A stretch of DNA of 64,000 bases from Lentisphaeria bacterium (GTDB lineage: Bacteria > Verrucomicrobiota > Lentisphaeria > JABSQK01 > JAWLHB01), in contig JAWLHB010000011.1 of NCBI GenBank assembly GCA_041690595.1, positions 1 through 64,000 on the forward strand, written 5' to 3'. Below are positions 14,948 to 50,296 of this stretch, piece after piece. The notes under the pieces are model-generated. The model searched no databases. It was not told the DNA's origin and saw nothing but the letters and a program-made list of their open reading frames with translations. Position numbers and translations under genes: made by a program. Position 1 is the stretch's first letter. Every line of letters begins with the position of its first letter.

Positions 14948-15667
14948 TCATTTGCCGTACGAGATGCCAAGGCTGACAAAGAACCACGGCTCGAGCATCT
15001 GCCACCAGCCGACCAGGGGGGGGATGTGGCTGTAGGATTGTCCGCGCGGCGGATAAATCATGCTGCAGGGGACTTCCGCGATCCGATACCCCAGCTTGAT
15101 GGCCTTGGCGTACAGAAAGTATTCGAACTGATAGCGGTCGAGTCCGTCGCGGTCCCAGGCGATTCGCTCATCCTGCAGCAGCGTGGTCCGGTAGGCGCGC
15201 AGCCCACAGGTTGCGTCCGTGATCCTGCGCCCCATGAAGAGGCGCACCACATTGTTGACGACAAGCGGAATGGCGTACTTGCGAAAGGCCGGCAGATTGG
15301 GCGACTCTCCTCCCTCAAGGTAGCGGCTGCCGGTCACATAGTCTGCATGGCCGTCCTCGATGGGGGCGCGAACCGCGGCCAACTCCGAAGGCTTCATCTT
15401 GCCATTTCCAGCCATGTTGCAGCAGATGTCGTAACCCTCATCCAGCGCGATTCTGGCCCCAAGGCGCAAGGCCGACCCGATGCCCGAATTGACCTCCTGC
15501 CGGATGCAACGGTAGCCGCTGGCGGCGATCAAGTCGCTGGAGCCATCCGTCGAGCCGTTGTCCACGATAAGCAACTCATCGGTGGACAGGTGAGCGCGGC
15601 AACTCTCCAGCACCTTTGGGAACTGGGTCACCTGATTGTACACCGGCATGACGCAGAGAGATTTCAT
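14948..15667 (-). CDS. GT2 glycosyltransferase, polyprenol-phosphate glycosyltransferase-like (DPM1/ArnC type)
   Basis: VMPVYNQ, IVDNGSTDGS, ADYVTGSRY, ITDATCGLRAY and YRIAEVP. Confidence 0.9.
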   Translation of the reverse strand: MKSLCVMPVYNQVTQFPKVLESCRAHLSTDELLIVDNGSTDGSSDLIAASGYRCIRQEVNSGIGSALRLGARIALDEGYDICCNMAGNGKMKPSELAAVRAPIEDGHADYVTGSRYLEGGESPNLPAFRKYAIPLVVNNVVRLFMGRRITDATCGLRAYRTTLLQDERIAWDRDGLDRYQFEYFLYAKAIKLGYRIAEVPCSMIYPPRGQSYSHIPPLVGWWQMLEPWFFVSLGISYGK

Positions 15668-15691
15668 CGGCAGGCGGATTGCTCCGGATAA

Positions 15692-17581
15692 TCAGTTTTC
15701 GGAAGGGGAGTGAGGGTTGAATGTAGTCTCCGCGGGCGGCTCTGTCACCCCGGATTCAGGAGGAATATCGGCGCGACGTCTCCCGATCAGGATGCCGAAG
15801 CTCTCCGAGGAGAGAGGCATGGCGCCGATTCGGTGGATGTACTCGTAGTGCCGGGCAAGGTGCCCCGCGGTCTCCCGCGCATAATCCCTGCCGAAAAATC
15901 GCGCCCCCTCTTCGCTCATATCACGGTGCACGATGACGAGCCACTCGGGCTGCACGTCGGCAATCCGGGCCAGGAGAGCCTCCTCCCTGTAGAGCTGGTA
16001 GATCCATGGAATAAGCGCCACTACGGGCATGTCGGCCGGCGTCTGCAGCAGGTAGTTGAGCAGAATTCCCTCTGGAACCACCAGCAGTTTGTCCCCCGGT
16101 TGGATGCGATCGCTCAAATAGCGGCGTGCCTCTTCGAACATGGCGCCCCGCGAGTCAGCAAGGAACGCATCACCGCCTGTGCCCACAACATGTCTTTTCT
16201 CCTGGTAGAAGTGATGTGTCGTCATGACGTGCGCTGCCACCAGACCAATCCAGATTCCGCCCGCCAGTGCGCGGCAGAAGGTGCGCTGAAATGCCAATGG
16301 CAGGCGGCGGGGCAGCCACCAGAAGACTAGGGCAACGATGATCTGCGCCGCCGGCATGGCAAGCGCAAAGCCATACTGCCAGACACGAACGAAGAGAATC
16401 ATCTTCGCCAGCAGTACCAGGGAAAAGACGATGCCGGCCACCCGCAGAACCTGAACCTCCGGAGGCGACTGGTCATGACGCTGGCGCCAGACGCCCAGTG
16501 CGACGCCAGTCAAGGTGGCAAGGAGAAGGATCTGCCACGGGCGGGCATAATCGAGGAGGAAGAGCGGCGTCCCTCGCACCAGCACCACCGTCAGCACAGC
16601 TCCAACCAGCATGGCTGCCGCTCGCACGGGAAATGGCTCGAGCACCCGTTTCGGCAGGTAGCGGCAGATGGCCCAGACTAAGCCTCCACACGCGCCGTAG
16701 CCCACCAGCCACTTGACGATGCGCCAACTGTTGCCGGGGATGTTGTCGATACCCATGAAGTAGGGATAGGCGGGAATGCTGCTGAAGCTTCCTCCGAGAA
16801 CATGAGGCCAGGTACCCGCAAGGCCGCGAAACGCATCGGGCGCCGGCAACTGCCAGAGCAGCCAGATGAGCGCAAGCAGGATAGGGCAGAGCACACCGCC
16901 CAGCCACCAGGCGCTGATGCTGAAGACCCGTCGCCGTTCCGTCCGTTTGTGCCGCATCCAGATGACCCCCATGCCGCAGCCAAAGCCGATCAGGCTGGCA
17001 AGAAAAACCTCTGCTTTGGTGAGAAAAACGAGACCGAGGCAGGCACCGCTGAGCAAATAGAGCCGGCTATTGTCTCGGGCGACCGCTCGATACAGGAGGG
17101 CCAGCCCCAGCAGTGTCAGAACAATCCCGTGCGGCAAATCGTGCGAGTAGGGGGCCATCCAGTTGGAGTTGGCTATGTATTCATATTGGCCGTATGCAAA
17201 GACTCCGACAAAGGTGAGCGCGCCGATCAGCGCGGTGAAGCCATCCGTGGCCTTGGCCTGAAGATCGTGAATGAGCAGCGCGGCTACGGTCAGGATCAGC
17301 AGGTTGAGCACGAAGAGCGCCCGGAGTGATCGGCCGAAGATCCTCAACCAGATACAGTTGAAGGTGGGTGAGAAAGGACCGTTCAGATAGTCGATTTCAC
17401 GATAGAGAGCGTCGCCCTCCACCAACCGCCACGGCACATAGATTTCCCGCCCGAAGTCGATGATGGGGTCCAGCCATCTGCCCCAACTCCACACCGCTCC
17501 AGCCGCAACCGCCAGCAGAATGACCAGCACCGGCAGCCACCGGCGATGGATAGCAGATGGTGAGGTGAATGTCGCGGACAT
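15692..17581 (-). CDS. Multi-pass GT-C-type (ArnT/PMT-like) membrane glycosyltransferase
   Basis: DFGREIYVPWRLVEGDALYREIDYLNGPFSP first loop, about 12 TM segments, C-terminal periplasmic domain. Co-oriented with the GT2 gene. Confidence 0.7.
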   Translation of the reverse strand: MSATFTSPSAIHRRWLPVLVILLAVAAGAVWSWGRWLDPIIDFGREIYVPWRLVEGDALYREIDYLNGPFSPTFNCIWLRIFGRSLRALFVLNLLILTVAALLIHDLQAKATDGFTALIGALTFVGVFAYGQYEYIANSNWMAPYSHDLPHGIVLTLLGLALLYRAVARDNSRLYLLSGACLGLVFLTKAEVFLASLIGFGCGMGVIWMRHKRTERRRVFSISAWWLGGVLCPILLALIWLLWQLPAPDAFRGLAGTWPHVLGGSFSSIPAYPYFMGIDNIPGNSWRIVKWLVGYGACGGLVWAICRYLPKRVLEPFPVRAAAMLVGAVLTVVLVRGTPLFLLDYARPWQILLLATLTGVALGVWRQRHDQSPPEVQVLRVAGIVFSLVLLAKMILFVRVWQYGFALAMPAAQIIVALVFWWLPRRLPLAFQRTFCRALAGGIWIGLVAAHVMTTHHFYQEKRHVVGTGGDAFLADSRGAMFEEARRYLSDRIQPGDKLLVVPEGILLNYLLQTPADMPVVALIPWIYQLYREEALLARIADVQPEWLVIVHRDMSEEGARFFGRDYARETAGHLARHYEYIHRIGAMPLSSESFGILIGRRRADIPPESGVTEPPAETTFNPHSPSEN

Positions 17582-17594
17582 GACGCGTCGCCGC

Positions 17595-19343
17595 TTACGT
17601 ATGCTGCGCAAGATGATGAAGAAGAAACTTCGCGGCGCCTGTCAGTGACGAGGAGGTGGACAGCACGTCCGCTTCATGGCCTTGCGTCAGGCTGGTGACG
17701 GTATAGACGGGAGCGCCGTTCACGATGCTGCCGCCAATCGCCACACTGGCGTCCAGACGGCCGATCCACTGACGGGTCTCCCGGGCGAGCGGTACATCGG
17801 GGTGCAGCAGCACGATCTGCCCATCGGCCTGCGCGTAGCGGGCCAACACATCGGCCGCTTCGCGCTGATCCGCCTCATCACCGAGCGCTTTGCTGATCAT
17901 CCGTGGCGTGATGGCAAGAACCTGGAAGCCATTGTCCCACAGCAGTTGGGTGAGACTTTCCATGGTGGACTCCGCCGGGGACGCCTCCAACTCATTCAGC
18001 CGGACGACTGCCCCGGGACGCCGCACGGTGGCCGCTGTCCGGTCGGTGTTCAACTCTCCAATAGTTGCGCTGTGTCGCGCCAGGATCATGCCGGCAGCCA
18101 GAGTGGCATTGGTGACCCGATCGATGAGGATCAGCCGCCCCGTGCTGCGATTCACCACGTAGGGGTCATAACAGACTGGTTGACGGCTCTCGATGATGAC
18201 GCGCCCGATCGCGTTGAGACCCAGCTCTTCGTCATGCTCGCGGTGAAGCGTGTTGACGTTGAGCCGGTAAAGCAGCTTCTCCACCGTGACTGGAATCTGC
18301 CGCGGGCCGAACTTCATAAGGTACGGGTGATTGAGCCGAAGCGGTTGGTCACTCATCCAGACCAGCATCACTTCCAACTCGCGGCTGATAATCGGTTGAT
18401 TGTTCACATGGACGATCAGGTCGCCGCGGCTGACGTCGATATCGTCTTCGAGTGTCATGGTGACGGCGAGGGGCGCGGGCGCCTCTTCCAACTCCCCATC
18501 GAAGGTGACGATCGAGGCGATGCGACTGCGGCGGCCACTGGGCAGTGCGACCACCTCGGCCCCTTTGCGCAGAATGCCGGAGACGATGGTGCCCGCATAG
18601 CCGCGGAAAGTGTGCGACGGGCGGATCACGTGCTGCACCGGGAAACGGAGATCGATGAGGTTCCGGTCGCTGGCAATATGAACCGACTCCAGATAGTCGA
18701 GCAGCGAGCCACCGTGGTACCACGGCATGTCGGCACTCGGGTTGACGACATTGTCGCCCCGCAACGCCGATATGGGAATAAAGTGAATGTCGGTCGCTTC
18801 CAGCTTGGCGGCGAAATCGCTGTATTGCTTGCGAATGCGCTCGAAGACCTCTTCACTGTAGTCGACTGCATCCATCTTGTTGATGGCTACCACCAGATGC
18901 CGTATGCCAAGCAGGGTGGCAATGAAGCTATGCCGGCAGGTCTGAGGCAGGACTCCGTGACGGGCGTCGATCAGGATGATGGCAAGATCGCAGGTGCTGG
19001 CGCCGGTGGCCATGTTGCGGGTATACTGCTCATGACCCGGCGTATCGGCAATGATGAATTTGCGCTTGGCCGTCGAAAAAAAGCGGTAGGCGACGTCGAT
19101 GGTGATGCCCTGCTCCCGCTCCGCCCGTAAACCGTCCATGAGCAGCGCCAGATCGATGGTGCCCGTCGTCCCGTAGCGCTCGGAATCGCGGGTCAGGGAG
19201 TCGAGCTGATCGGCAAAGAGCTGGCGACTGTCGTGGAGAAGCCGACCGATCAGGGTCGACTTGCCGTCATCGACGCTTCCGGCCGTCAGCAGCCGGAGCA
19301 GATCCTTGCGTTCATTTGCGGCCAGAAGGGCGGGGACATTCAT
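17595..19343 (-). CDS. cysN: Sulfate adenylyltransferase subunit 1 with C-terminal extension
   Basis: GSVDDGKSTLIGRLL, REQGITIDVAYRFF, DTPGHEQYTRNM and NKMD. ATG at 19343 immediately follows the cysD stop. Confidence 0.96.
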   Translation of the reverse strand: MNVPALLAANERKDLLRLLTAGSVDDGKSTLIGRLLHDSRQLFADQLDSLTRDSERYGTTGTIDLALLMDGLRAEREQGITIDVAYRFFSTAKRKFIIADTPGHEQYTRNMATGASTCDLAIILIDARHGVLPQTCRHSFIATLLGIRHLVVAINKMDAVDYSEEVFERIRKQYSDFAAKLEATDIHFIPISALRGDNVVNPSADMPWYHGGSLLDYLESVHIASDRNLIDLRFPVQHVIRPSHTFRGYAGTIVSGILRKGAEVVALPSGRRSRIASIVTFDGELEEAPAPLAVTMTLEDDIDVSRGDLIVHVNNQPIISRELEVMLVWMSDQPLRLNHPYLMKFGPRQIPVTVEKLLYRLNVNTLHREHDEELGLNAIGRVIIESRQPVCYDPYVVNRSTGRLILIDRVTNATLAAGMILARHSATIGELNTDRTAATVRRPGAVVRLNELEASPAESTMESLTQLLWDNGFQVLAITPRMISKALGDEADQREAADVLARYAQADGQIVLLHPDVPLARETRQWIGRLDASVAIGGSIVNGAPVYTVTSLTQGHEADVLSTSSSLTGAAKFLLHHLAQHT

Positions 19344-19344
19344 G

Positions 19345-20238
19345 TCAGAAATAGCCTTCCCGTTTCTTGCGTTCCATGCTCGAATCCTGATCGTGATCGA
19401 TGGCGCGGCCTTGGCGTTCCGACTGCGTGGCCTCGATGACCTCGCCGATAATGGCGTCGAGCGTGGTGGCCTCCGAGCGGATGGCGCCGGTGCATGGCAC
19501 ACAGCCCAGAGTCCGGAAACGAACCATGGCTTTGAAGGGCGTTTCGCCGGCGCGCGGCTGAAAGCGATCGTCGTGCATGATGAGCATGCCGTTGCGTTCA
19601 ATGACCTCGCGCTCTCGTGCGAAGTAGAGGGGGACAATCGGGATGGACTCGAGCCGGATGTAGGTCCACACGTCCAGCTCCGTCCAGTTCGACAGCGGGA
19701 ATACCCGGATCGATTCGCCCTGATTCACGCGGCAGTTGTAGAGATCCCACAGCTCCGGCCGCTGCGTCCGTGGATCCCATTGACCATGAATGTCGCGGAA
19801 GGACAGAATGCGTTCTTTGGCCCGTGACTTTTCCTCGTCGCGGCGAGCACCGCCAAAGGCAGCGTCGAACTTGCCATGAGCGAGGGCGTCCAGAAGCGCC
19901 TGAGTCTTGAGAAGGTTGCAGCAGCTGCGGGTCCCGTAGCTTGCCGGCTCGCATCCACCGTCCAGCGCAGCCTGATTCGTATGCACGATCAGGTTGAGCC
20001 CCAGCTCATTGGCAATGCGATCGCGAAACTCGACCATCTCATGGAATTTGTAGGAGGTGTCGATATGAAGGAGCGGAAAGGGGATGGGGCCCGGATAGAA
20101 GGCCTTCTGCGCCAGGCGGAGCAGGACGGAAGAATCCTTGCCGATGGAATAGAGCATCACCGGCCGTTCGAACTCCGCCGCCACTTCCCGGAAGATGTGG
20201 ATGCTCTCCGCTTCCAGCAGGCGCAGGTGCGACATCAT
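19345..20238 (-). CDS. cysD: Sulfate adenylyltransferase subunit 2
   Basis: [37 protein letters not shown] and [11 protein letters not shown]. Confidence 0.97.
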
Positions 20239-20879
20239 GGCTTCAGCGCCTCGCCATGCAGCAGGCCATGGTCCTCAAGGTACTGCATGATCACGTCAAG
20301 TGATTCCGAGACTGACAGCTGATGTGTGGGAACGCGCAGTTCAGGCTCCAGCGGCATCTCGTAGGGTGCGTCGATCCCCGTGAAATCCCGGATCTTGCCC
20401 GCCCGTGCCAGCTCATACAGATGCTTCGGGTCCCGTTCCTCGCAGACGGCCAGCGGCACATCCAGATAGATCTCGATGAAGCGGCCGTCGGGAACGATGC
20501 CACGGGCTGTGTCCCGACCTTCCCGGTAGGGCGAAATAAAGGCGGCTATGGTGATGACACCCGCATCCGCAAAGAGTGCCGCAACCTCACGTACGCGCCG
20601 GATGTTCTCGTCGCGATCTTCGGGAGAAAAGCGCAAGTCGGCGTTGAGCCCATGGCGGACATTGTCACCGTCCAGTACATAGGCAAGACGTTTGCGATGA
20701 AGCAGGCGCTCCTCCAGCCCCACGGCCAGTGTCGATTTGCCTGACCCGCTGAGGCCGGTAAACCAGATGACACAACCTTTCTGCCCGAGCAGGCGCTCCC
20801 GATCGTCTTTGGAGACCCGCCCCAGATGCCAGGTAATGTTCTTCGACCTTTGCGGTGCGTCAATGGTAGCGTCGTCCAT
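20235..20879 (-). CDS. cysC: Adenylyl-sulfate (APS) kinase
   Basis: [38 protein letters not shown] and FTGIDAPYE. Confidence 0.97.
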
Positions 20880-21089
20880 GCATCCCTCCCCACAGTTCTT
20901 TTAAGCCATCCCATCCTTCCACTTAGTTTAACCTCATCCTCCTACTAATCAAGGGCGGATGGCGGTACCGATCGCCTTCCAACGCGATGTACTTTGGGGT
21001 CGCCTCTTGTGCCACCGGTGTTGGGCCGGTATATTTCGGCCTCACCAATCCCGATAAGGGCTATCATCGATATCGAGAGGCTGAATCAC

Positions 21090-23672
21090 GTGAATGAGCA
21101 AGACGATGGCGCAAGCGTGGATGGCATGCGCATCCTGATACTGGATGACGAGCGCCAACTCCTCAAGTTACTGGCCAACGACCTGCAACAGCGCGGCGCC
21201 CTTGTACAGGCTGCCCCCGACGGCCGACGCGGATTGCAGATGCTCTTTGACTCATGCTGCGATGTGATCGTTCTCGATCTCCATATGCCGAACATGGACG
21301 GCGTGGCTTTTCTCCAGGAAGCTTTGAATATCTGGCCATGGCTGGCTGTGGTCGTGATGACCGGCTACGACGTCAGCAGGGATACCGCCGCCGAACTCCG
21401 CAATCTCAAGGTGACACGTCTCCTGCAAAAGCCCTTCGAGCACACCGACCTGCTGAGACAGATTCGCGAAGCGTATGATGAGCAGCAGGGCGAGGCCGCG
21501 GAAAACCTGGTGGTGCCCATTGCCCGTGTTCAGCGCCAGTTGCAGCTGTTGCGGCTGACAACCGAGCCGGCCTTGCGGGAGGAATCCCTGCTCGACGCCA
21601 TGCGCTCACTGTCGGTACAGCTGGCGCAAGCCCTCGATTTTGCCGTGATTGGCGTCTGTGGCATGGAGCCCAACCAGAACGCTGCCATCTTCAATATCCG
21701 CGAGCCCGTGACAGCGGCATTCATCGGCGAACTGAAGTTCTTCCTGGCTCAGCGATACTGCGGATTGACCGGCGATGACGGCAGCATGGAACTCTGCATC
21801 GAATTGAGCGGCCTTGATCTGGATGAAGATGGCGCCAACCACCCGGCAAGCAAATTCTGCGTCCCCATCATGTCCGGCTCCGAGTTGCAGGGCTTCCTTA
21901 TCCTGGCATCACCTGAAGACGGTGAGTTCAGTGTCAGTGACGTGGCCTTTATCTATGGCGTAGCCAATCATCTCTCCACCGTCTTTGCCGCCCTCAACCG
22001 CATGCGCAGTCTCGCAATCCATGACCCGCTGACCGGTCTCTACAATCGCCTGCACCTCGAGCGCGAACTCGAGCGCATGTGGTCCGGCAGCGCTCGCTAC
22101 GGACGCCCGATGGCCGTCGCCATCATGGACTTCGATCACTTCAAGATGGTCAACGACACCTATGGCCACCAGACCGGCGATCAGGTCCTGAAGGAGTTCG
22201 CCGACCTCCTGGTTGACGTCAGCAGGACCAGCGATGTGGTCGGCCGATACGGCGGCGAAGAGTTCCTGGTCTTGCTGCCCGACGCGAATCGCGAAGACGC
22301 GCGCAGCTACGGCAAGCGGCTCATTTCCAAGGTCCGCGAGCATGTCTTCTGCGCCGGTGATCATGAACTGCATCTGACGGTTTCCGTTGGTGCTTCCGCG
22401 GCGGAATTCAGCAAACTTCGTTCATCCAACGTACATGAATTGGTCGCCGAGGCAGACCAGGCGATGTACGCCGCCAAGCACGCTGGGCGGAATTGCGTCC
22501 GCCTCTGGTCACCAGAAGAGCGACTGACGTTGGAGCACCAAAAGCCTGGAGAATTCACCGGCGAAGAGACCCTGATCGGCCGGCCGGTGGTCCGCGGGCA
22601 TATTCTGCTGGTCGATGACGAACCGCAGATCCGGCTGATCATGGGCGAGATGCTGCGCATGGGGCATTTCGAAGTGGCGACGGCCGCCAGCGGCGAAGAA
22701 GCCCTCTGGATGATCGAACAGAAGCCCGCTACCTATGATCTTGTGCTGGCGGACATCCAGATGCCCGGCATGAACGGTCTGGAACTCATCGAGAAAGCAA
22801 AAGCCATCGACGAGACGCTCGTTTGCATCATTATTTCCGGTCACGCATCAGCGGAGAACGCGATCCAGGGGATGCGCCGGGGGGCCTACGACTTCATCAA
22901 GAAGCCGCACATTACCTTTTCCGAGGTGATGCCGACCATCGACCGCGCGATCGAGTATCGTAAAGCAGTCCTCGAGAACCGGCAGTACCAGCGCCACTTG
23001 TCGGCCATGGTCCGCCAGAAAAGCGCCAGCGCGCGAGATGCCTTGCGCGAAGTGGCGGCATCCTACGAGTTTACCCTTGAAGCGTTGGTCTCACTGCTCG
23101 ATGCACGCGAGCGTTCTACCAGCGATCACAGCAAGCGCGTGCGCGCGCTGGCCATCCGCATGGCGGAGGAGATCGACTGGCCAGAGGATGAAATGAAGGA
23201 CCTCAGCTACGGTGCCCTCCTCCATGATATCGGCAAGATCGGCATTCCCGATCATATCATGCTCAAGCCGGGCAAGCTGACCCCGGAGGAGAAGGAGATC
23301 ATGAACCAACATGCCGAGATCGGCTATCGTGTGCTTTCCGGCAGCAGCTACCTCGCCAAGGCGGCCGAAATCGTCTATTGCCATCAGGAAGCCTATGATG
23401 GGTCGGGATATCCCCGCGGCTTGGCCGGAGACGCCATCCCATTGGGCGCGCGCCTCTTCTCGATCATCGATTCCTATGATGCAATGCGCACCGAGCGAGT
23501 CTATCGGGCGGCGTTGCCGGAGGAGGTGGTGGTGCAGGAAATCTTCGCCCGCAGTGGCACCCAGTTCGATCCCGCCATGGTCAACGCCTTTCTCTGTTGC
23601 CGCTCAGCTCTTGCCCGCATCTATGATGCTTGGGATTCCTCTCACGATGCGCAGCCGGTTCATTCCCGATGA
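21090..23672 (+). CDS. Response-regulator diguanylate cyclase/phosphodiesterase, REC-GAF-GGDEF-REC-HD-GYP
   Basis: REC1 (LDDE..DLHMP..KPF), GAF-like segment, HDPLTGLYNR/DFDHFKMVNDTYGH/RTSDVVGRYGGEEF, REC2 (VDDE..DIQMP..KKP), then LLHDIGKIG and HQEAYDGSGYPRGL. GTG 21090 follows GAGAGG; the ORF track starts at 20994. Confidence 0.93.
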   Translation: MNEQDDGASVDGMRILILDDERQLLKLLANDLQQRGALVQAAPDGRRGLQMLFDSCCDVIVLDLHMPNMDGVAFLQEALNIWPWLAVVVMTGYDVSRDTAAELRNLKVTRLLQKPFEHTDLLRQIREAYDEQQGEAAENLVVPIARVQRQLQLLRLTTEPALREESLLDAMRSLSVQLAQALDFAVIGVCGMEPNQNAAIFNIREPVTAAFIGELKFFLAQRYCGLTGDDGSMELCIELSGLDLDEDGANHPASKFCVPIMSGSELQGFLILASPEDGEFSVSDVAFIYGVANHLSTVFAALNRMRSLAIHDPLTGLYNRLHLERELERMWSGSARYGRPMAVAIMDFDHFKMVNDTYGHQTGDQVLKEFADLLVDVSRTSDVVGRYGGEEFLVLLPDANREDARSYGKRLISKVREHVFCAGDHELHLTVSVGASAAEFSKLRSSNVHELVAEADQAMYAAKHAGRNCVRLWSPEERLTLEHQKPGEFTGEETLIGRPVVRGHILLVDDEPQIRLIMGEMLRMGHFEVATAASGEEALWMIEQKPATYDLVLADIQMPGMNGLELIEKAKAIDETLVCIIISGHASAENAIQGMRRGAYDFIKKPHITFSEVMPTIDRAIEYRKAVLENRQYQRHLSAMVRQKSASARDALREVAASYEFTLEALVSLLDARERSTSDHSKRVRALAIRMAEEIDWPEDEMKDLSYGALLHDIGKIGIPDHIMLKPGKLTPEEKEIMNQHAEIGYRVLSGSSYLAKAAEIVYCHQEAYDGSGYPRGLAGDAIPLGARLFSIIDSYDAMRTERVYRAALPEEVVVQEIFARSGTQFDPAMVNAFLCCRSALARIYDAWDSSHDAQPVHSR

Positions 23673-23679
23673 ATACCCC

Positions 23680-25242: not shown

Positions 25243-25821
25243 GCATGTCCCCCAAGGAATTAAGGATGAGCAGTCTGTCGTGTGACTTGGCAATCCCGCG
25301 TATTACCGCAAAGTATCGCCTAATGTAATCGACGAATCAGGCGAATCCAATGGCCGTCACCGCGGGAGTACTGCTTGTTCCGCCACCCGATTCTCTCTCT
25401 TCCCCCGGACCGGCTCCAACCATCCGCAAAAATGTCAGAACGACAAGCGTTAGAATATCGTTTGACCCAGTTTCCCCGGCGGAGTCGGATTGGGGCCGGG
25501 CACTGGCCCCGGATGGCTGGTCCGGCGCTTGTGCACGCAGGTAGCGGTGCAATGTTGTTGGCTCTGTCCGCATCCTCTATCGCAGGGACTATCCTCTTGC
25601 TTTTCAACGAATGCATGGTATACTATAGAAACGTAGTTTGCCAATGAATTCCGCTTGCTGAAGACGTCAAGTAGCTTAATGCTCAACATTCATATTCGGT
25701 GGTGACTGCTTCGGAAGGTATCATTGGAGGCGCAATGGTTTCGGCGCAAGAGTTTCGGCGCAAGAGTTGAGTGCTCCTTCACGATGACAACGCGGCGTCG
25801 CAGCCGAGGGACAGGGTTGAC

Positions 25822-27783: not shown

Positions 27784-27792
27784 CGGTAATCT

Positions 27793-28851: not shown

Positions 28852-28855
28852 GCCA

Positions 28856-29980: not shown

Positions 29981-30000
29981 TAGATTCCGGAAACTCGGAC

Positions 30001-31365: not shown

Positions 31366-31380
31366 CCCAGGCGGCTCCCC

Positions 31381-35359: not shown

Positions 35360-35378
35360 GTGGAGCATTGAACGTGTC

Positions 35379-36284: not shown

Positions 36285-36288
36285 TCGT

Positions 36289-37440: not shown

Positions 37441-37444
37441 CTCC

Positions 37445-39659: not shown

Positions 39660-39686
39660 ACATGGTGGACACAGGGGGATCGTCAG

Positions 39687-42139: not shown

Positions 42140-42867
42140 GGCGATTGATTCGCATAGCCGAAGCGGCTGACGTCTTCGGCATAACGCGCCGCGACGGCTT
42201 CCACCAAGAGCGGAGTGTAGGGCCTGGTGGGGTACGAATGGCCCTGGCAACTGCTCATGAGGCGGGGAAGCTTCGCGGTGACACCCAGACGACTCGCCAC
42301 CATCGGCCACTCCTCGTCTATCGCTTCGAGATGGCCGATGAAGGTGGGCAGCGTTTCGCCGTCCTTTCCCACAAGCGCAAGGTACTGGGAGCGAAAGTGT
42401 TCGTCCGCGTCCGCATCGTCAATTGTCAGTACAGCCTGAACAAACTCGGCAAAAGACATCCCGGCACGGAACTGATTGCCGAACTTGCGGAATCCGTCAA
42501 AGACGCCGTTGGTGAAGCCGCGTACCTGTATCTTTGGATCGGGCATCACTTTGCTCTTGTAACAGGAATAGAGTCGATCCCATGGATTGCGGACAAAGGC
42601 GAACTTGAAATAGTCATCATATTTGGCGGAGGCGATTTCCTCGCGTACGGCATAGGGGAAGGGGGCTTCGTGCACGGAATCATCGATATCTTCGAGGTCA
42701 TAATAGAGGCCAAGATAATCGGCGAAGATCTTCTTGATGGAAGAGCAGGCCACCTTCGGGATGGGGAAATAGATGACGCGCAAGGGGACGATCAGGATGT
42801 TGCCGTGTGTGTAGTAATTTTCGTTGCGCAGGAGAAGACGGCGGAGAACCTGGGTAAACTCACTCAT
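42133..42867 (-). CDS. Sulfotransferase family 2 (HNK-1/chondroitin carbohydrate sulfotransferase-like)
   Basis: YFPIPKVACSSIKK, FAFVRNPWDRLYSCY, DEHFRSQ, FIGHLE and YAEDVSRFGY. Confidence 0.88.
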   Translation of the reverse strand: MSEFTQVLRRLLLRNENYYTHGNILIVPLRVIYFPIPKVACSSIKKIFADYLGLYYDLEDIDDSVHEAPFPYAVREEIASAKYDDYFKFAFVRNPWDRLYSCYKSKVMPDPKIQVRGFTNGVFDGFRKFGNQFRAGMSFAEFVQAVLTIDDADADEHFRSQYLALVGKDGETLPTFIGHLEAIDEEWPMVASRLGVTAKLPRLMSSCQGHSYPTRPYTPLLVEAVAARYAEDVSRFGYANQSPQ

Positions 42868-43984
42868 GGCGATCCTCGGGGCTCCGACCAAGTGGGGCGA
42901 GATAGGCAACCTCGGCTGTTGCCGGTTCCACCGCGGTGGCGGGAACCCGCCGCGGACGGGCCGCCTTCATGCGGTTGAAAAAATCTACGGCCACCACCCA
43001 GCTGCGAAATGCCGCGGTCGACCAGGTGCCGATGACCGAGAGCCGGGGCACCTCGTAGAAATCGGCGGCCGCGGTCACGTAGTCGGCATTGTTGATGACA
43101 GCGCCTCGGAAACCGAGTTGGCGAATGAGACTGCCGGTAGCCGGCGAACGAAACTCCTCCTTTCCGTACGGATACGAAAACCAGGAGACGCCTTGACCGG
43201 TCCACTCCGTGATGAGTTCCGCGCTGCGGGCCAGTTCGTGGCGTGCCTGCGTGATGGAAGCCTGCGCCATGTTGATATGATGAACGCCATGGCTGCCATA
43301 GGTGATGAGGCCGGAGCTGGTGGCGGCCGCCAACTCATCGGGACGGGCAAACTGATTGTGCGGCAAGGTCAGTCGGTCACGGACAGCCAGTTCCACGGCC
43401 ACTTGATAGGCCAGCATCTGCTCGCTGGTGGCGTAGTAGCAATGCTGGCTGAGTGCGTTCAGAAAAGCTTGCTGCCCCGGGGCATCCCGCAGGTCGAAGA
43501 CCTGAAGCTTCCCCTGGTACTTCACCTGGATAACGTCGCGCAGGTTGCTGACAATGAAGGCGCCAAGATCCCACCATGGCAAGCGCCGCTGATCTTCCAG
43601 ATAATATACCGGCACAAAGACAATGGCTGGTGCCCGGTAATGCTCCAGAATCGGCAGGGCCAGCCGAAAGACATTGCGATACGCGTCGTCGAAGGTGATC
43701 GCGACCTGCCAGCGGGAGCCAGGTGAATCCACGCGCTCTTCCATGATCTGGTCGAGCGTAACGAAGTCGGCAAAGGTGGAGAGCCATTTCAGATGTCGAG
43801 CAAAGACCGTCACTTCAACGGCCATTTCCGGATGACAGTGGGACCGCCTGGCGTCATCCTCCTGCTCGCGCTGATCGAAGATCTCGTGATAGAGAAGGAC
43901 CAGTTTGCGCCGGCGAACCTGGCGCAACAAGGGGACGATCGCGGAAATGGACTGCATGAGGCAGCTTTTGAAGAGTGACTTCAT
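42860..43984 (-). CDS. Polysaccharide deacetylase (CE4/NodB)
   Basis: VLLYH, AITFDDAY, GSHGVHH and FSYPYG. Confidence 0.9.
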   Translation of the reverse strand: MKSLFKSCLMQSISAIVPLLRQVRRRKLVLLYHEIFDQREQEDDARRSHCHPEMAVEVTVFARHLKWLSTFADFVTLDQIMEERVDSPGSRWQVAITFDDAYRNVFRLALPILEHYRAPAIVFVPVYYLEDQRRLPWWDLGAFIVSNLRDVIQVKYQGKLQVFDLRDAPGQQAFLNALSQHCYYATSEQMLAYQVAVELAVRDRLTLPHNQFARPDELAAATSSGLITYGSHGVHHINMAQASITQARHELARSAELITEWTGQGVSWFSYPYGKEEFRSPATGSLIRQLGFRGAVINNADYVTAAADFYEVPRLSVIGTWSTAAFRSWVVAVDFFNRMKAARPRRVPATAVEPATAEVAYLAPLGRSPEDRHE

Positions 43985-44006
43985 GGATAGGTGCCCGGCA
44001 CGATGT

Positions 44007-44756
44007 TCAGTGAGTGTCCAATGGTTTCAGCCGAGACTTGAGCTTCTGAGCCAGGGAGTAAAGACGCGAATTGTACTGCCAGTATGTATAATACGTGGCG
44101 TGGCGACCGCCGAACTTTTCCTTGAACTTGTTGATGCCGACCCGCGGATCATCTGGATCGTCGCCGCCATAATAGCCACCAAGATCAAATTCGCCGCAGC
44201 CGGCTGATTTGGCATACTTGATCGCTTCCCAGATTGCCAATCGGTTCGCACAACTTATTAATGTAGTATCGATTGCGTCATTCTCAAGCCTTCTGGATGC
44301 GCCGAAGAGCCAGCGCATGTGACGCGCATCGCGCAGCATCAGGGCTCCCGCCAGCAGCTCGCCTTCCAGATGAGCCGTAAACAGGGTGCAGTACTGGCGC
44401 ATGAAGGAGACCGACTCGTTCGTCGTCGAAAAACCTTTTTGCCCGATAAAGGCGCTGTACATGGCATGGAAAGCATCGAAATCCTGGTTCACGGCGATCG
44501 AAATTCCGCTGCGCTCAGCGCGATTGATGAAGTACCGGCAGGACTTCTTTCCCATATTGCCCCATAGCGTATCGAGGTCAGGCGCAAGGTCGATGACCAG
44601 CGTCGGGGCAGCTTCGCATTGGAAATCTGGGTCGTCGACTTTGTTGCGGCAGGCATAGAAGTGGACGACATCCGCGTCGGGCACGGCAAAGGGTCGTTCA
44701 CTAAACCAGATGTTCTTCTTCCTGAAGATGCCTTTCTTCTTCTCAATTTCGAGCAA
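44007..44756 (-). CDS. FemAB-like/GNAT acyltransferase
   Basis: TLVIDL..LW..KKSCRYFINRAER, LAIWEAIKYAK..G..FDLGG and GINKFKEKFGG. Confidence 0.8.
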   Translation of the reverse strand: MLEIEKKKGIFRKKNIWFSERPFAVPDADVVHFYACRNKVDDPDFQCEAAPTLVIDLAPDLDTLWGNMGKKSCRYFINRAERSGISIAVNQDFDAFHAMYSAFIGQKGFSTTNESVSFMRQYCTLFTAHLEGELLAGALMLRDARHMRWLFGASRRLENDAIDTTLISCANRLAIWEAIKYAKSAGCGEFDLGGYYGGDDPDDPRVGINKFKEKFGGRHATYYTYWQYNSRLYSLAQKLKSRLKPLDTH

Positions 44757-44796
44757 GGATGAGACTCCCGGGCCAGTCGGATCGATAACCGTTGGC

Positions 44797-47700
44797 TCAA
44801 TAGATCGTGGTTGCCTCGGTCTCTTCCACCGGCCGCGTGAGTTGATCCGAGTTGAGCTCGGTCATGAAGCGGACATCACCGGCATTCAGCGCTTTGACCT
44901 TGACCTGCCATGTCGCCTTTGTCTGCGGCTGGAGGCTGTTCAGCGGGGCAAACGCGATGGCGCGTCCATCTGGATGCACGGTTCCGGGAGTTGCGCCGTC
45001 AGCCGAAATGAATTGAAGATTGGCTTCGAGTTGGCAGCTGATCACCACGTTGGTACTGGCAATGCTCCCCTGATTTGTTGCCACGATCACGTAGGTTCCC
45101 GTCTCGCCGACTTCGAGGGGATCGCGCAGATCCGCCACTTCCAAAAGGATGGCCGCTATTCCCTGCACCTGCGTGTCGGCTGTGGCAATCACTTCGGGGG
45201 CGCAGTGAGCCTGAGCCGTAAAACGCTGGGTATAAGCGCCGGGCTGCTCGGCCTGCAGCGTCGCCTGCACTTCCGTTGTCTCGTTCGGCGCAAGATTCGC
45301 GATGATCCAGGTTATGGTCTCTCTGGCTGCGCTGGCGTTGTGCGAGGCCGCTACGAAGCTCATGCCTCGGGGCACCAGCGCGGACACGGCCAGATTACTC
45401 GCGGCTGCGTCACCAATATTGGTTACTCTGGCGGTATAGACGATTGGGCGTCCGGCATATTGTTCGCCGCGCGCGCTGGCGGTAACCCGCAGGCGAGGCG
45501 CCTTGACGCTGACGGAATGGTTGGCTTGGGCCTGCAATCCGCCTTCGCCGGTCAGAGTGGCGATGAGGCGGAAGGTCCCGGTCTCCGTGGCCTGCACACG
45601 CACGGACTGCTCGCTCCTGGCGCCGGCCGCAAGATCACCCAGGCGCGCCACCAAGCTGCGCTCGCCATTCGCGCCAACCAGCCCTTGAGGCAGATCGACC
45701 CGCAATTCGACCCCCGTGGCGGTGCCCGTGCCGCTGTTGACGACCGTGAAGTCCAGTGGGAGTTGATCGCATGCCAGAATGGCCGGGGGAGCCGCCATGG
45801 TCAGTTCCAGCATGGGCTGTACCACACGGGTCGTGGCACAATCCTGGACGGTAAAATCGACCAGAGCGCAATATTCCAGATCTTGCGGTGACATGGCTAC
45901 GCCGGTGACGATGAACTCCTCCGACGCGCCGGGCGCCATCGGGCGAATCTCCCAGCGCAAGGCCCCCCCAGGGAGTTGCTCTGCTTCGCGCTTCGTGCTG
46001 TGCACGATAAATCCGGCTGGCGGTTGCTCGGTAACGATTACCCGATAGAGAGCACAATTGGTGCCGTTGTGCACGCGAAGCTTGTATTGAAAGAGTTCAC
46101 CAACGTTCACGACGGAAGGATTGTCGCGCTCTACATAAACGGTGCCCTGCAGATTGCTGCTTGGAATCCCCTTTCGCACCAGGAGCCGTCCATTCTCTTC
46201 GCTGCGATACTCGCAGTCATTCCGCACCGGGGTTGCAGCCGGTTGTACGGCTACGGGAGTGGGGCCAAGGTCGCGAACAAGGCGAAAGCCCAAGTCGGGA
46301 GACGACTCGTTGGGATCGTACCAGCTGCGATTGGCGGAGCGCAGATAGGTTGGAAAGTGGCTCCAACTCCCGCCGCGACGTATCCTCGCTGGGCCGGATG
46401 ATGGTCCTTTGGGGTCAACAACCGGATCGAAAGGATAGTCACTTTGCCAGTCCGAACACCACTCCCAGACATTGCCGTGCATGTCGTACAGGCCCCAGGC
46501 GTTGGGTTCCTTCTGAGCGACGCGGTGGGGGCGATGTTCCGCTGTGTGGTAGTACCAGGCATAGGCACCAAGCTTCTCGTTCTCACCTTTCTCGCCCGGG
46601 TGCATTTCGACATTGTAGAAAGCGGTGGAGGTTCCGGCGCGACACGCATATTCCCATTCGGCTTCTGTCGGCAGGCGATAAGCGTTGGTGCCTTCCTGAT
46701 CGTTCAGTTGCTTGATAAACTGGTTGACCTGAACCCAACTGACTTTCTCGACGGGGTAATCCCAACCCCAATCGTAGAAGTGCGCTGGCTCCTTCTTCAT
46801 GATGGCATGCCACTGCCCCAACGTCACTTCGGTTCGCTGCATGTAGAAGCCGCGGGAGATGGTGACCCGGTGCAGCCGCTCGTCATCATCCCGCAGCAAT
46901 TCGTCGGCGGGGCTGCCCATCATGAACGAACCTGGAGGGATATAGGCGAACTCCATGCCGAGGGAGTTCTGCAGCGCCGCCGGCGGCGGCTCGATGTAGT
47001 GCATCTCCTGGGGCGGCAAGCTGGTTCTGGTGGCGGTAGGCGCATGGGCCTGTGGAGCGGCTGCGACCACGTTCAGCGGCCGCGCTTGCTGTTGCTGGAT
47101 TGCCGGCGCCTGGTGCTGAGGGGGGGCGGCAACCGCGGGCGAAGCATGGCGAGCTTGGCCGACGGTAGTCGGGTCGGCGAAGAGGGGAGTCAGCCGCACA
47201 TACTGATCGCGGCGTTCGAAGGTCGTGTCCTCGACTGGATTACTGTAAAGGCCGTTGGGAGCCGCGATGGTAACCAGGTCGTGGGGTACGTTCCGCAGGT
47301 AATGGGAGAGCAGGTCGAGGGGAGCCGAGGCCCGCGAAGTCGCCAGCGCGAGGTTGCCTGCTTCCTTGCCGGTGCGGGATGTGCTGCCCACCGCGGTGAT
47401 CACGATGCCCTTTCCGTTGGCGCGCTCTATCAGGCTCTCGGCAAAGCTCTTCAATTGTGCGGCGACCTGAGAGTCGGCGGGAATATCGCTGCCGAGGGCC
47501 GCAAAATAGACGGTCATCTCCGTCAGGAGCTGATGGTTGGCCTGGTTGCGCATGAGTGCATAGGCCATCTCCGCGGACTCGGCATTCCGCGCCGGGGAGT
47601 GGTCCCCTTGAAAGGCGCTATCGGCCGGTTGCGGGTAGATCGCCATCCGATGAGAATGCGCAAAGATTGCGACCAGATCCCGTGAACTGCCATTCTGGGA

Positions 47701-47841
47701 ACCGGCCCAGTACATCCGGTTCGGGAAAACTACCTCGTGCATCCCTGAGCTCGGGCGCGATGCGCTTTCCGCTCCACGCGCTGCTCCGCTCAAGACGAGG
47801 ATGCAGCAGACACTAAGCACCCGGAAAAAGTTCTCATACAT
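44797..47841 (-). CDS. Secreted multidomain protein: OmpA-like + FGE/SUMF1 (C-type lectin fold) + OmcB-like DUF11 repeats
   Basis: Signal peptide MYENFFRVLSVCCILVLSGAARGA. OmpA-like VYF...GSTSRTGKEAGNLALATSRA...RRDQYV. FGE motifs FMMGSP/RLPTEAEWEYACRAG/PNAWGLYDMHGNVWEW/RRGGSW/GFRLVR. C-terminal half collinear with the 23680-25242 protein. Confidence 0.85.
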   Translation of the reverse strand: MYENFFRVLSVCCILVLSGAARGAESASRPSSGMHEVVFPNRMYWAGSQNGSSRDLVAIFAHSHRMAIYPQPADSAFQGDHSPARNAESAEMAYALMRNQANHQLLTEMTVYFAALGSDIPADSQVAAQLKSFAESLIERANGKGIVITAVGSTSRTGKEAGNLALATSRASAPLDLLSHYLRNVPHDLVTIAAPNGLYSNPVEDTTFERRDQYVRLTPLFADPTTVGQARHASPAVAAPPQHQAPAIQQQQARPLNVVAAAPQAHAPTATRTSLPPQEMHYIEPPPAALQNSLGMEFAYIPPGSFMMGSPADELLRDDDERLHRVTISRGFYMQRTEVTLGQWHAIMKKEPAHFYDWGWDYPVEKVSWVQVNQFIKQLNDQEGTNAYRLPTEAEWEYACRAGTSTAFYNVEMHPGEKGENEKLGAYAWYYHTAEHRPHRVAQKEPNAWGLYDMHGNVWEWCSDWQSDYPFDPVVDPKGPSSGPARIRRGGSWSHFPTYLRSANRSWYDPNESSPDLGFRLVRDLGPTPVAVQPAATPVRNDCEYRSEENGRLLVRKGIPSSNLQGTVYVERDNPSVVNVGELFQYKLRVHNGTNCALYRVIVTEQPPAGFIVHSTKREAEQLPGGALRWEIRPMAPGASEEFIVTGVAMSPQDLEYCALVDFTVQDCATTRVVQPMLELTMAAPPAILACDQLPLDFTVVNSGTGTATGVELRVDLPQGLVGANGERSLVARLGDLAAGARSEQSVRVQATETGTFRLIATLTGEGGLQAQANHSVSVKAPRLRVTASARGEQYAGRPIVYTARVTNIGDAAASNLAVSALVPRGMSFVAASHNASAARETITWIIANLAPNETTEVQATLQAEQPGAYTQRFTAQAHCAPEVIATADTQVQGIAAILLEVADLRDPLEVGETGTYVIVATNQGSIASTNVVISCQLEANLQFISADGATPGTVHPDGRAIAFAPLNSLQPQTKATWQVKVKALNAGDVRFMTELNSDQLTRPVEETEATTIY

Positions 47842-47896
47842 GGCGCTACTTCCTTGATACCCTGGGAGATCCAATGCTCTCTGTGTGAAGCCTGAC

Positions 47897-47912
47897 GGCA
47901 AAAAACAGGCCG
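47897..47912 (-). promoter_or_regulatory. Putative sigma54 (-24/-12) promoter
   Basis: Minus strand CGGCCTGTTTTTTGCC has GG-N10-GC spacing, ~56 bp upstream of ATG 47841. Confidence 0.45.
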
Positions 47913-48401
47913 TACATTCCGTGACCATGTGCGTACTGATCCGCCTGGGCATTAAGGTACCGATTTCTGCGCGAATATCAACTCAGGGAAGGGCTGGATC
48001 GAGTCGCACGAAGTTATGCAGCGCGCGAAAGAGACTCTGCCGGCTCGCTGGCCACGGCTGGACGTGAAGCGCAATGCACCGGAATCCATGGACAGTTTTG
48101 CCTCAGAATTTGCCGTTGGAGTCACTGTTTCCCGGGTGAGTAGTCTGGCTGAGGTCTCGGTGGAGCGGGGTATATGATAGAAGTTGGATCTCGCCGTGCG
48201 TTTGTTTTTTTGACCAGCAAATCAAACGGGCCAGTTGTGTCGCGTGGCCGCGCTGCGCGGCGAAGCTCGCGACAATGCGGATCACTCACGCAGCGTTTCT
48301 TGTGGTGGACTGGCGGCAAGTCGTTCGCCGATGTCACTTTTGCATGAGGCCCCGACAGGTAGAAAAGGGCGCTGCTATCGGCATGGTTCTGAGGCGGGCT
48401 C

Positions 48402-48434
48402 TTGTATTTATCGTTGACATAACGATATTAACAA
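48402..48434. promoter_or_regulatory. Operator-like palindrome overlapping a TTGACA hexamer
   Basis: TTGT-N3-TATCGTT-GACAT-AACGATA-N3-ACAA. Confidence 0.55.
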
Positions 48435-48597
48435 TGGATTGAGAGAAGCCAGAATGTGATGGAGCGATGGCGGCACAGGCTGCTACAAATGGCAGTTTAT
48501 CAGTAGTTGGCTGGACGGGATCTGGACGAGGCGTTCTGAGGAATCGACACCCTGAGCGGACGCCTGCAGATAGCCAACAAGAGGGATTTTGCATACT

Positions 48598-49704
48598 ATG
48601 GCAGGCACCCTGCGTGTGGAAGAAGAAAAGCCCACTGAAGTGAGCACTGAAGTCGTGGGCAATAGATGTGAGGATGAAACTTCGCACTCGGACAAGCTTG
48701 GCTATCGCCGGCAATCCGTCTGGGTCAGTGAACTCTTCAACATCACCGGCGCCTTGGTTTTGCTTCTCCTTGCCGCCCCGATCATTCTCCTCATCACGCT
48801 GGTCGTTTGGGTTCGCGAAGGACGTCCCATCTTCTATCGGGGTGCGCGGCTGGGAATCAACAAGGAGATCTTCTTCATGTTCAAGTTCCGTAGTCTGGTG
48901 ACAGACGCGGAAGCTCAGCTGCGCGAGAATCTTCTCGGCAAACGTTGCGATTTGGTGACGTCGACAGGAAAATTTCTTCGGGAGACGCGGCTGGATGAAC
49001 TGCCGCAGCTCTTCAATGTGCTGCGTCGCGACATGGACCTGGTGGGGCCACGACCGGTTCGTCCGCTGGTCTATGAGAAGATGTGCCAGCAGATCCCAAA
49101 CTATGACCGCCGCTTCGAGGTGCGACCCGGCTTGGTAGGCTTCTCGCAGATCTTTACGCCTCATTCGACCCCGAAGGAGATTCGTTCCCTGATCGACAAT
49201 CGCCTCCTGCGCAAGAAGGAGAAGGTGTGGTGGAGTGTCAAGGCGCTGGTACTTACGGCCTGCCTTCTGGTTAGAACCTTCGTTCTGAAGGTTCACGGCA
49301 TCTTCATGTACAAGCTGGTGCAGCAAGTGCTGCTGCGGCGGTACAACGAGAAGCGGCGTTACGATCGGATCCGAACCCGGAATGCAACCTGTCTGCTGCC
49401 GACCCTGGGCGGGGAGCATGACTATCGTGCGGTCGGTGAGGTGCTGGACATCAATGTAGAGGCCTTTCTCTTGCGCACGGATGTGCCCTTGCCTCAGGAG
49501 ACGCTGCCCCGGTTGCGACTGGAGATCATTGTCCGTAAAACAGGCCGGGGCAACGGGAAGCGCAAGTTTGCGATCTGCCGGGGGCAGATCATGCGGACCA
49601 TGCAGCGGAATGGCGGGTGGGAGTACGTGATCCAGTATGAGCCATCCAGCCCCCTGAACTGCTACTTGGTCGCGCAGTATTTTCTCCGCGAAAGCGTCGG
49701 CTGA
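48598..49704 (+). CDS. Priming polyprenyl-phosphate glycosyl-1-phosphate transferase with C-terminal PilZ-like domain
   Basis: PIFYRGARLG..FFMFKFRSL, GKFLRETRLDELPQLFNVLRRDMDLVGPRP and VRPGLVG, then EKRRYDR...GEVLDINVEAF...CRGQIMR...YVIQY. Confidence 0.88.
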   Translation: MAGTLRVEEEKPTEVSTEVVGNRCEDETSHSDKLGYRRQSVWVSELFNITGALVLLLLAAPIILLITLVVWVREGRPIFYRGARLGINKEIFFMFKFRSLVTDAEAQLRENLLGKRCDLVTSTGKFLRETRLDELPQLFNVLRRDMDLVGPRPVRPLVYEKMCQQIPNYDRRFEVRPGLVGFSQIFTPHSTPKEIRSLIDNRLLRKKEKVWWSVKALVLTACLLVRTFVLKVHGIFMYKLVQQVLLRRYNEKRRYDRIRTRNATCLLPTLGGEHDYRAVGEVLDINVEAFLLRTDVPLPQETLPRLRLEIIVRKTGRGNGKRKFAICRGQIMRTMQRNGGWEYVIQYEPSSPLNCYLVAQYFLRESVG

Positions 49705-50187: not shown

Positions 50188-50204
50188 TCGAGCGAACGTA
50201 GCGA

Positions 50205-50230: not shown

Positions 50231-50296
50231 CTTGCCCCCTTCCAGGAACTCCAGAATTCGCTCATTATTATCAGCACGACGGGGAGTATAAACCGT

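Follow-up and report, generated by a model that had tools for sequence, protein, structure and literature searches.

The genome of a Lentisphaeria bacterium (GenBank assembly GCA_041690595.1) carries, side by side, genes for polysaccharide export, sulfate activation and cyclic di-GMP (c-di-GMP) turnover, which raises the question of whether these genes form one system and how polymer synthesis is switched on. The window analysed here is a stretch of 64,000 nucleotides (positions 1 to 64,000 of contig JAWLHB010000011.1), the start of a 198 kb contig from a host genome of 8.1 Mb that is 97% complete. A previous interpretation of the window from its letters alone (hereafter the sequence-only reading) had proposed that the block at 14948-49704 is an undescribed, c-di-GMP-controlled island for a sulfated exopolysaccharide (EPS), with its own supply of 3'-phosphoadenosine 5'-phosphosulfate (PAPS) and with OmcB-like surface proteins that display or tether the polymer. 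The claim that these 35 kb are a system not described before, with OmcB-like proteins as tethers, does not hold up. Instead, the block is a locally enlarged and probably sulfated version of a Wzx/Wzy locus that is widespread, apparently has no name and is characterised by a PilZ-like priming enzyme. We lean towards a model in which c-di-GMP is likely bound by the PilZ-like domain of the priming transferase, which likely controls the initial step of synthesis in this way, the polymer then being likely sulfated by two added sulfotransferases with PAPS from the adjacent cysDNC genes.

Pfam and NCBIfam scans of the proteins encoded in 14948-49704 recovered every gene named in the sequence-only reading in its proposed place, with three GT2 genes rather than the two it had counted, and with an HPr-kinase-like gene that is indeed there but matches its family weakly. 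The main gene run, on the forward strand, encodes an ExeA-type AAA ATPase with a C-terminal SPOR domain (25771-27783; Pfam/NCBIfam), a BY-kinase-like cytoplasmic protein with the Walker A motif GEGKT (27793-28851; TIGR03018 E 1.4e-21, below cut-off), an OPX export protein (28856-29980; Pfam), a polysaccharide co-polymerase (30001-31365; PF02706), two Wzy_C polymerase/ligase paralogues (31381-32781 and 32688-34175; Pfam), a core GT2 (34172-35359; Pfam), a GT4 (36190-37440; Pfam), a second GT2 (37181-38383; Pfam), a predicted lipoprotein with a fibronectin type III (fn3) domain (38337-39659), the HprK-related P-loop protein (39687-40817; TIGR04355 E 2e-8, below cut-off) and a Wzx flippase (40814-42139; PF01943); the priming transferase (48589-49704) lies further downstream on the same strand. 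The components by which a Wzx/Wzy-dependent locus is recognised (priming transferase, glycosyltransferases, Wzx, Wzy, co-polymerase and OPX) are therefore all encoded. Three features had gone unlisted before: a GT-C/PMT_2-like membrane protein (15692-17611), the fn3-containing lipoprotein and a PilZ-like tail on the priming transferase.

With an alignment of OPX, the marker of the locus family, 105 relatives were retrieved from GTDB genomes, and 80 loci were kept together with flanks of up to 10 kb; gene counts over these loci were made by tblastn with the window proteins, and only 39 of the 80 loci reach 19 kb or more. The loci belong to Desulfobacterota, Nitrospirota, Gammaproteobacteria, Magnetococcales, Lentisphaeria and others, and the named records include cultured carriers such as Marichromatium gracile DSM 203, Desulfobacter latus, Ferrimonas balearica and Gilvimarinus gilvus. 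Matches to the kinase (76 loci), the co-polymerase (75), the priming transferase (61), Wzy (57), GT4 (52, a generic family) and the core GT2 (50) recur, those to the lipoprotein (25), the second GT2 (21), the HprK-like protein (12) and the ExeA-type ATPase (11) are rarer, and neither sulfotransferase, nor cysC, cysD, the GT-C-like gene or the first DUF11 gene (DUF11a), was matched in any of the 80. The tandem Wzy_C paralogues (31381-34175) are 60% identical to each other, and no second Wzy match was seen in the related loci. By these counts, the conserved unit is the predicted Wzx/Wzy core of kinase, OPX, co-polymerase, priming transferase, Wzy, GT2, GT4 and predicted lipoprotein. This core is patchy within the lineage of the host: the OPX marker was found in none of 300 genomes of the phylum and in 2 of 300 genomes of the class.

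The priming enzyme of this core is a monotopic phosphoglycosyl transferase of the PglC/WbaP type, with an intact PglC-type core (DELPQ) followed by a tail of ~120 amino acids (aa), the PilZ-like domain (about 49350-49701). A single-sequence query with the transferase found no loci in genome contigs and a word-indexed search with its C-terminal part returned only itself, while a metagenome scan with the transferase alignment gave mostly generic transferases (3 of 80 cover the PilZ-like part), which were left out of the synteny analysis. In HMMER searches, the family that shares this tail comprised 242 clusters at 50% identity, and the tail is present in 59 of the 61 transferase relatives from OPX-marked loci. 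The two arginines of its RxxxR motif (R226 and R230, numbered from window position 48679) are conserved at 97% and 98% among 118 sequences, and a C-terminal helix, YxPxSPLNxY..QYFL, is conserved as strongly as these arginines. The domain is called PilZ-like because DxNxxA replaces [DN]xSxxG, the canonical second motif of PilZ domains. Pfam PilZ matches 4 of 115 family members; HHalign against 28 PilZ domains from five carrier genomes aligned the tail over 106 columns, motif on motif, with a probability of 87.7% (E 3.4e-6), as compared with a probability of 1.6% or less for all 23 controls (three unrelated alignments and 20 shuffles). An AlphaFold2 model of the transferase (mean predicted local distance difference test, pLDDT, 93.7) gives the tail six strands and a closing helix, a predicted PilZ fold, and Foldseek with this model returned PglC and WbaP, then c-di-GMP-bound BcsA, Alg44, YcgR, MotI and MapZ, and also MrkH. 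Control by c-di-GMP, as put forward in the sequence-only reading, thus gains support, and the PilZ-like domain on the priming enzyme, which that reading had not seen, provides a candidate mechanism.

A candidate source of the nucleotide is encoded in the block itself. The protein at 20994-23672 (forward strand) has the Pfam architecture REC-(GAF)-GGDEF-REC-HD-GYP; its GGEEF, RxxD I-site, HD and GYP motifs are present, and HQE replaces HHE. Its gene is the only GGDEF and the only HD_5 match of the 97%-complete host genome, in which no EAL domain and no PilZ domain at the Pfam level were found. An independent link between the two functions comes from a 1.3 Mb, low-GC assembly unrelated to the host and having nine PilZ matches (G303), where two histidine kinases, a REC-HD-GYP protein and a REC-GGDEF protein run, on one strand, into the fusion of priming transferase and PilZ-like domain, Wzy and GT2 (L093:12017-17772, contig C1), the REC-HD-GYP and REC-GGDEF genes standing directly upstream of the fusion. 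A GGDEF-only gene ~2-3 kb from cysD/cysN in one class genome (G166) is a single case and was not counted as support. Within the class, GGDEF was found in 60 of 300 genomes, and the REC-GAF-GGDEF-REC-HD-GYP protein is a recurring one in Lentisphaeria (L083, L091, L098, L104-L117), being the sole GGDEF match in several genomes.

Sulfotransferase 1 (35379-36284, forward strand; Sulfotransfer_3, PF13469 E 1.2e-17) sits in the middle of the glycosyltransferase run, and sulfotransferase 2 (42133-42909, reverse strand; Sulfotransfer_2, CHST-like, PF03567 E 2e-19) abuts the flippase and is co-oriented with a CE4 polysaccharide deacetylase (42860-43984; PF01522, TFDD and HxxxH present) and a GNAT/FemAB-like acyltransferase (44007-44756; Pfam/NCBIfam). 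Both sulfotransferases score over the Pfam cut-offs, are intact and possess motifs which we take to be of the PAPS-binding type; named relatives of sulfotransferase 2 include cyanobacterial proteins at 38-45% identity. Also on the reverse strand, all over their cut-offs, are cysN (17595-19343; TIGR02034, 602 bits) and cysD (19345-20238; TIGR02039), encoding the large and small subunits of ATP sulfurylase, and cysC (20235-20879; TIGR00455), the only full-length gene for adenosine 5'-phosphosulfate (APS) kinase in the genome. The cysDN genes of the block are a second copy, the other pair lying on contig C2 beside a gene of the PAPS_reduct family. CysN has a C-terminal tail of ~150 aa (17595-18050) without a P-loop; a decayed APS kinase was considered for it and set aside, the likeness to CysC being marginal (E 0.01 in a two-sequence search). 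Sulfotransferases inside the cluster and local cysD, cysN and cysC are the features of a sulfated polysaccharide locus, and cysNDC with sulfotransferases in a polysaccharide cluster has been described as a hallmark of sulfated polymers (PMC11641403). With two intact sulfotransferases and the genome's only APS kinase in one block, the decorated, sulfated Wzx/Wzy polysaccharide anticipated by the sequence-only reading is probably made by the host organism; judged from the genes, we hold a sulfated product there to be quite probable. Within the EPS locus family, sulfation is an accessory decoration.

Taken together, a kinase signal acting on the two receiver domains would decide whether the one GGDEF/HD-GYP protein of the genome synthesises or degrades c-di-GMP, and the nucleotide would bind the RxxxR switch of the transferase, which would then load the first sugar-phosphate onto undecaprenyl phosphate. 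Following established Wzx/Wzy biology, the GT2 and GT4 enzymes would build the repeat, the sulfotransferases, deacetylase and acyltransferase would decorate it, Wzx would flip it, Wzy, the co-polymerase and the kinase would polymerise it, and OPX would export the product. In a bolder version, which is conceivable although we are inclined to doubt it, one bifunctional cyclase/phosphodiesterase and one PilZ-variant receptor (RxxxR with DxNxxA) fused to the priming transferase would make up a minimal, self-contained c-di-GMP circuit that directly switches on a sulfated-matrix Wzx/Wzy pathway in a Lentisphaeria bacterium; the same fusion, in at least 240 protein clusters across many phyla, would control an EPS system that has no name and that includes a periplasmic protein of new fold.

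Several observations weigh against the proposed switch and its sulfate supply. The second motif of the tail is altered to D-I-N-E-E-A, the canonical form occurring in 1 of 118 sequences, and this alteration casts real doubt on the predicted c-di-GMP binding, which we consider likely from sequence and predicted structure. For the PilZ-like part, the Foldseek matches reach only modest significance (E 1e-3 to 2e-2) and also include split barrels of flavin reductases; the Atlas score is only 0.82. Genes for c-di-GMP turnover adjoin the transferase in only one of the 80 loci, that of G303, and one further locus (L057) has a GGDEF gene ~7 kb from it. The receptor search in the host was confined to PilZ, with MshEN, riboswitches and transcription factors outside its range. 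On the supply side, no nucleotide-sugar, cysQ or sulfate-permease genes were found in the block, and two more Sulfotransfer_3 genes are found elsewhere in the host, at C42:45268 (L269) and C1:158816 (L270), one beside a flippase and one in a sulfatase/oxidoreductase run; the cysC of the block is therefore likely to serve the whole genome rather than being dedicated to the EPS locus. Finally, in the genome of another order that has the closest OPX (G389, discussed below), the orthologues are all present yet scattered over at least seven contigs.

In a first alternative, the PilZ-like tail would be a degenerate domain with a structural or protein-docking role which does not sense c-di-GMP, and the adjacent cyclase would be a chance neighbour that acts at most indirectly. 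The second motif is indeed non-canonical in nearly all members, the strongly conserved C-terminal helix could serve as a docking surface, and the cyclase is a gene of the lineage: a near-full-length orthologue was found in 13 of 19 stretches examined, including those of 9 genomes of the class where OPX was not found, and none of the 13 stretches holds EPS core genes beside it. Nevertheless, both arginines of RxxxR are near-invariant within an otherwise very divergent domain, an independent, operon-like association with GGDEF and HD-GYP genes is seen in G303, and the host genome offers no other PilZ match. We therefore regard a tail blind to c-di-GMP as rather unlikely.

Alternatively, the sulfotransferases and cysDNC could serve another target, such as lipopolysaccharide, a glycolipid or a protein glycan, or PAPS could be a signal, leaving the exported polymer unsulfated. 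A protein glycan could involve the two genes that follow cysN directly on the same strand, encoding a polyprenol-phosphate glycosyltransferase-like GT2 (14948-15667; PF00535 E 1.6e-15, with PpgS the best NCBIfam match, below cut-off) and the GT-C/PMT_2-like multi-pass membrane protein (15692-17611; PF13231 E 5e-5, below cut-off), together with one of the Wzy_C proteins acting as a ligase, and the Wzy_C family does span ligases and polymerases. This accessory pair (14948-17611) is likely a lipid-linked sugar transfer pair; its role may be to attach a side sugar beyond the inner membrane, or to glycosylate protein. A linked sulfotransferase is also missing from most relatives of the core, and in Vibrio vulnificus, the subject of a paper on PAPS and c-di-GMP, PAPS is a signal for EPS genes (PMC6113621). 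The placement of the genes argues otherwise: sulfotransferase 1 lies amid the glycosyltransferases, sulfotransferase 2 beside the flippase and in line with the deacetylase and acyltransferase, and the position next to the flippase recurs with a second, independent sulfotransferase in one carrier genome (G316). An unsulfated export product accordingly appears improbable to us.

Whether the cys genes, the cyclase and the DUF11 genes belong with the core was examined in 47 of the 80 carrier genomes, picked for long contigs or close kinship and searched whole, with linkage defined as a position within 30 kb of OPX. APS kinase is present in 37 of the 47 and linked in 2, Sulfotransfer_3 in 34 and linked in 1 (G316, where it adjoins the flippase), Sulfotransfer_2 in 10 and linked in none, and DUF11a homologues in 2, both Lentisphaeria, on other contigs and hence linked in none. 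Sulfotransfer_1 (PF00685) was covered in relatives by a motif filter, over the 80 loci and 23 further stretches. The two linked APS kinases look incidental, one standing among apparent housekeeping genes, as judged from N-termini only (G315), and the other lying 25 kb off with unrelated genes between (G322). Many assemblies of relatives are fragmented and may hide links, but the complete or long-contig carriers agree. The co-conservation of these genes with the wzx/wzy block, on which the sequence-only reading had staked its own proposal, is thus largely refuted (cysC 2/47, sulfotransferase 1/47, DUF11 0/47), and the notion of one co-conserved system fails also in Lentisphaeria, where the cyclase and DUF11 genes occur in genomes in which the core was not found. 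Given the low linkage in carriers and the presence of the cyclase and DUF11 genes in OPX-lacking genomes, we conclude from these comparisons that cysDNC and the genes for the cyclase and the DUF11 proteins belong to Lentisphaeria and adjoin the core here without being fixed parts of it.

One finding points in the opposite direction. G389 belongs to another order (YicC 38% identical, as compared with 34-46% within the order of the host), yet its OPX is the closest found (64%) and its transferase is 60% identical; it also has orthologues of the cyclase (57%), DUF11a (47%), the second DUF11 gene, DUF11b (41%), and cysDNC (54-63%). In a quick tree, the cyclases of the host and G389 are sisters (SH-aLRT 99; 14 rows, 3 of 16 loci being without an open reading frame that passed the filter). 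It is plausible that these genes share an origin in a G389-like donor.

As to the 'OmcB-like' proteins, four DUF11 repeats were confirmed by Pfam in each, on the reverse strand: DUF11a (23680-25293) is a predicted lipoprotein and a Lentisphaeria gene product, and DUF11b (44797-47952) combines its repeats with a weak OmpA-like region and an FGE-sulfatase-like domain. Beyond the repeats, the label finds no backing: cysteine content is low (8 of 537 residues in DUF11a and 13 of 1051 in DUF11b), and the best window match to Chlam_OMP6 reaches 17.8 bits, as compared with a cut-off of 34.1. XBBXBX, a heparin-binding pattern, is absent from both proteins. Display or tethering of the polymer by them is unsupported. 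DUF11a orthologues (38-47% identical) occur in 7 of 35 genomes, in 6 of which (38-45%) OPX was not found, and full-length DUF11b orthologues occur in G301 and G389, away from EPS genes. A second tandem DUF11 pair is encoded on host contig C4 (277049-280718; L100), of a type also present in the host's own order. FGE-sulfatase-like domains recur beside the EPS core in 14 of the 80 loci (L007, L009, L023, L024, L032, L052 and L060 among these); the 14 apparent DUF11b matches near relatives' cores were all to the FGE-like domain, none to DUF11, and were discarded.

Composition lends only mild support to the term 'island': the GC content of the block is 0.593 vs 0.616 (3% of 191 windows are lower), its median GC content at third codon positions is 0.72 vs 0.755, and its tetranucleotide distance falls at the 75th-86th percentile; no tRNA or integrase gene was found in the 64-kb window. 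That the whole 35 kb is a co-adapted unit of EPS core, cysDNC, cyclase and DUF11 tethers, which moved in as a block and whose DUF11 proteins serve to display the sulfated polymer or to hold it, might be suggested by the contiguity of all parts in the host, the rarity of the OPX marker in the phylum and class, the occurrence in G389 of cyclase, DUF11a, DUF11b, cysDNC, OPX and transferase copies that are the closest known here or nearly so, this mildly atypical composition, and the binding of heparin by chlamydial OmcB (PMC2811131), but is quite unlikely in view of the absence of linkage in relatives, the scatter in G389, the DUF11a orthologues in genomes where OPX was not found and, for the DUF11 proteins, the low cysteine content, the lack of an XBBXBX pattern and a Chlam_OMP6 score far below the cut-off.

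The preferred reading, a Wzx/Wzy core with a candidate c-di-GMP switch and added sulfation, can be set beside several known systems. BcsA and Alg44 work in synthase-dependent pathways and have the canonical second PilZ motif. As in the BcsA cellulose synthase and Alg44 (PDB 4p00, 4rt0), an RxxxR PilZ fold, here a predicted one, is attached to or partners a polysaccharide-making enzyme; unlike in these, it is fused to a monotopic phosphoglycosyl transferase that belongs to a Wzx/Wzy pathway, and its second motif is DxNxxA. The synechan cluster (xss) of Synechocystis PCC 6803, which makes a sulfated EPS (PMC8205485), resembles the block in its Wzx/Wzy genes with a priming transferase and a co-polymerase, and in its two sulfotransferases, which belong to different subfamilies; it differs in its transcriptional control by XssS/R/Q and in an OPX located elsewhere, whereas the block has the PilZ-like domain on the priming enzyme, the adjacent cysDNC and a non-cyanobacterial host. 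The combination of cysN/D/C and sulfotransferases in a polysaccharide cluster, for which novelty had been claimed, has in fact been published for the capsule loci of Vibrio sp. KMM 8419 and Cobetia marina KMM 1449, whose products were proven chemically to be sulfated (PMC11641403, PMC11766843); the cysN/D/C genes of the Vibrio locus are second copies, an acyltransferase is also present there, and both loci differ from the block in exporting through an ABC transporter instead of Wzx/Wzy, with no c-di-GMP element described in the portions available. In Myxococcus xanthus, EpsW-EpsZ (PMC12802240) offers a precedent for a Wzx/Wzy pathway controlled post-translationally through its priming transferase, as is proposed from sequence for the block; there, a phosphorylated receiver protein separate from the enzyme is the activator, and not a nucleotide sensor fused to it. 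Chlamydial OmcB (PMC2811131) shares with the DUF11 proteins of the block the repeats and a host from the Planctomycetes-Verrucomicrobia-Chlamydiae (PVC) group, but the latter are not cysteine-rich, have no Chlam_OMP6 over the cut-off and include one with an FGE-like domain. An ExeA-type ATPase, a split kinase/co-polymerase, OPX, and O-ligase-like, FemAB-like and deacetylase genes are also found in XrtA/PEP-CTERM EPS loci; a PEP-CTERM/exosortase assignment was rejected, as TIGR03015, TIGR03018, TIGR03027, TIGR03007, TIGR03097 and TIGR03019 all fell below cut-off and exosortase (PF09721) had no match in the 97%-complete host genome.

No paper title on a PilZ-fused priming transferase was found by keyword, with subscription papers outside the coverage of that search. 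A paper of 2025 describes post-translational control by c-di-GMP as well characterised in synthase pathways and that of Wzx/Wzy pathways as incompletely understood (PMC12802240); a small enzyme with a fused candidate sensor makes such control testable on one purified protein, and the host genome, with one detected c-di-GMP enzyme, is an unusually simple setting. The block further adds two candidates to the bacterial polysaccharide sulfotransferases, a little-studied class (PMC11641403).

The predicted lipoprotein of the core (38337-39659) possesses, besides fn3, an uncharacterised domain of ~290 aa with invariant Trp, Asp, Glu and His residues and a confident model (pLDDT 85). Foldseek gave no match under E 0.02 for this domain and searches of Pfam and of solved sequences none of note; its look-alikes in the Atlas (0.95-0.96) belong to unnamed clusters only, with phage and actinobacterial members included. 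In two carriers, the co-polymerase gene is followed by an Alginate_lyase gene, and the lipoprotein was not matched in the stretches examined; on this basis, we would hazard a weak guess that the lipoprotein is a periplasmic clearing lyase or hydrolase.

A promoter/terminator scan of 41000-51100 gave a result near chance, and a 0.05 share of one DNA sequencing run consisted of pieces of 150-290 bases, none spanning any gene junction of the block. Directly after the priming transferase, an ElaB/DUF883-like gene, a holin-X-like gene and a small basic gene stand in a row (49867-51020), and a protein with a Schlafen/AlbA_2 domain is encoded at 55148-56416. At the other end of the window, positions 419-7261 hold a LacI regulator, a DUF1559 prepilin-type protein, a sulfatase and a GH95 glycosidase, a sugar-use cluster typical for PVC bacteria.

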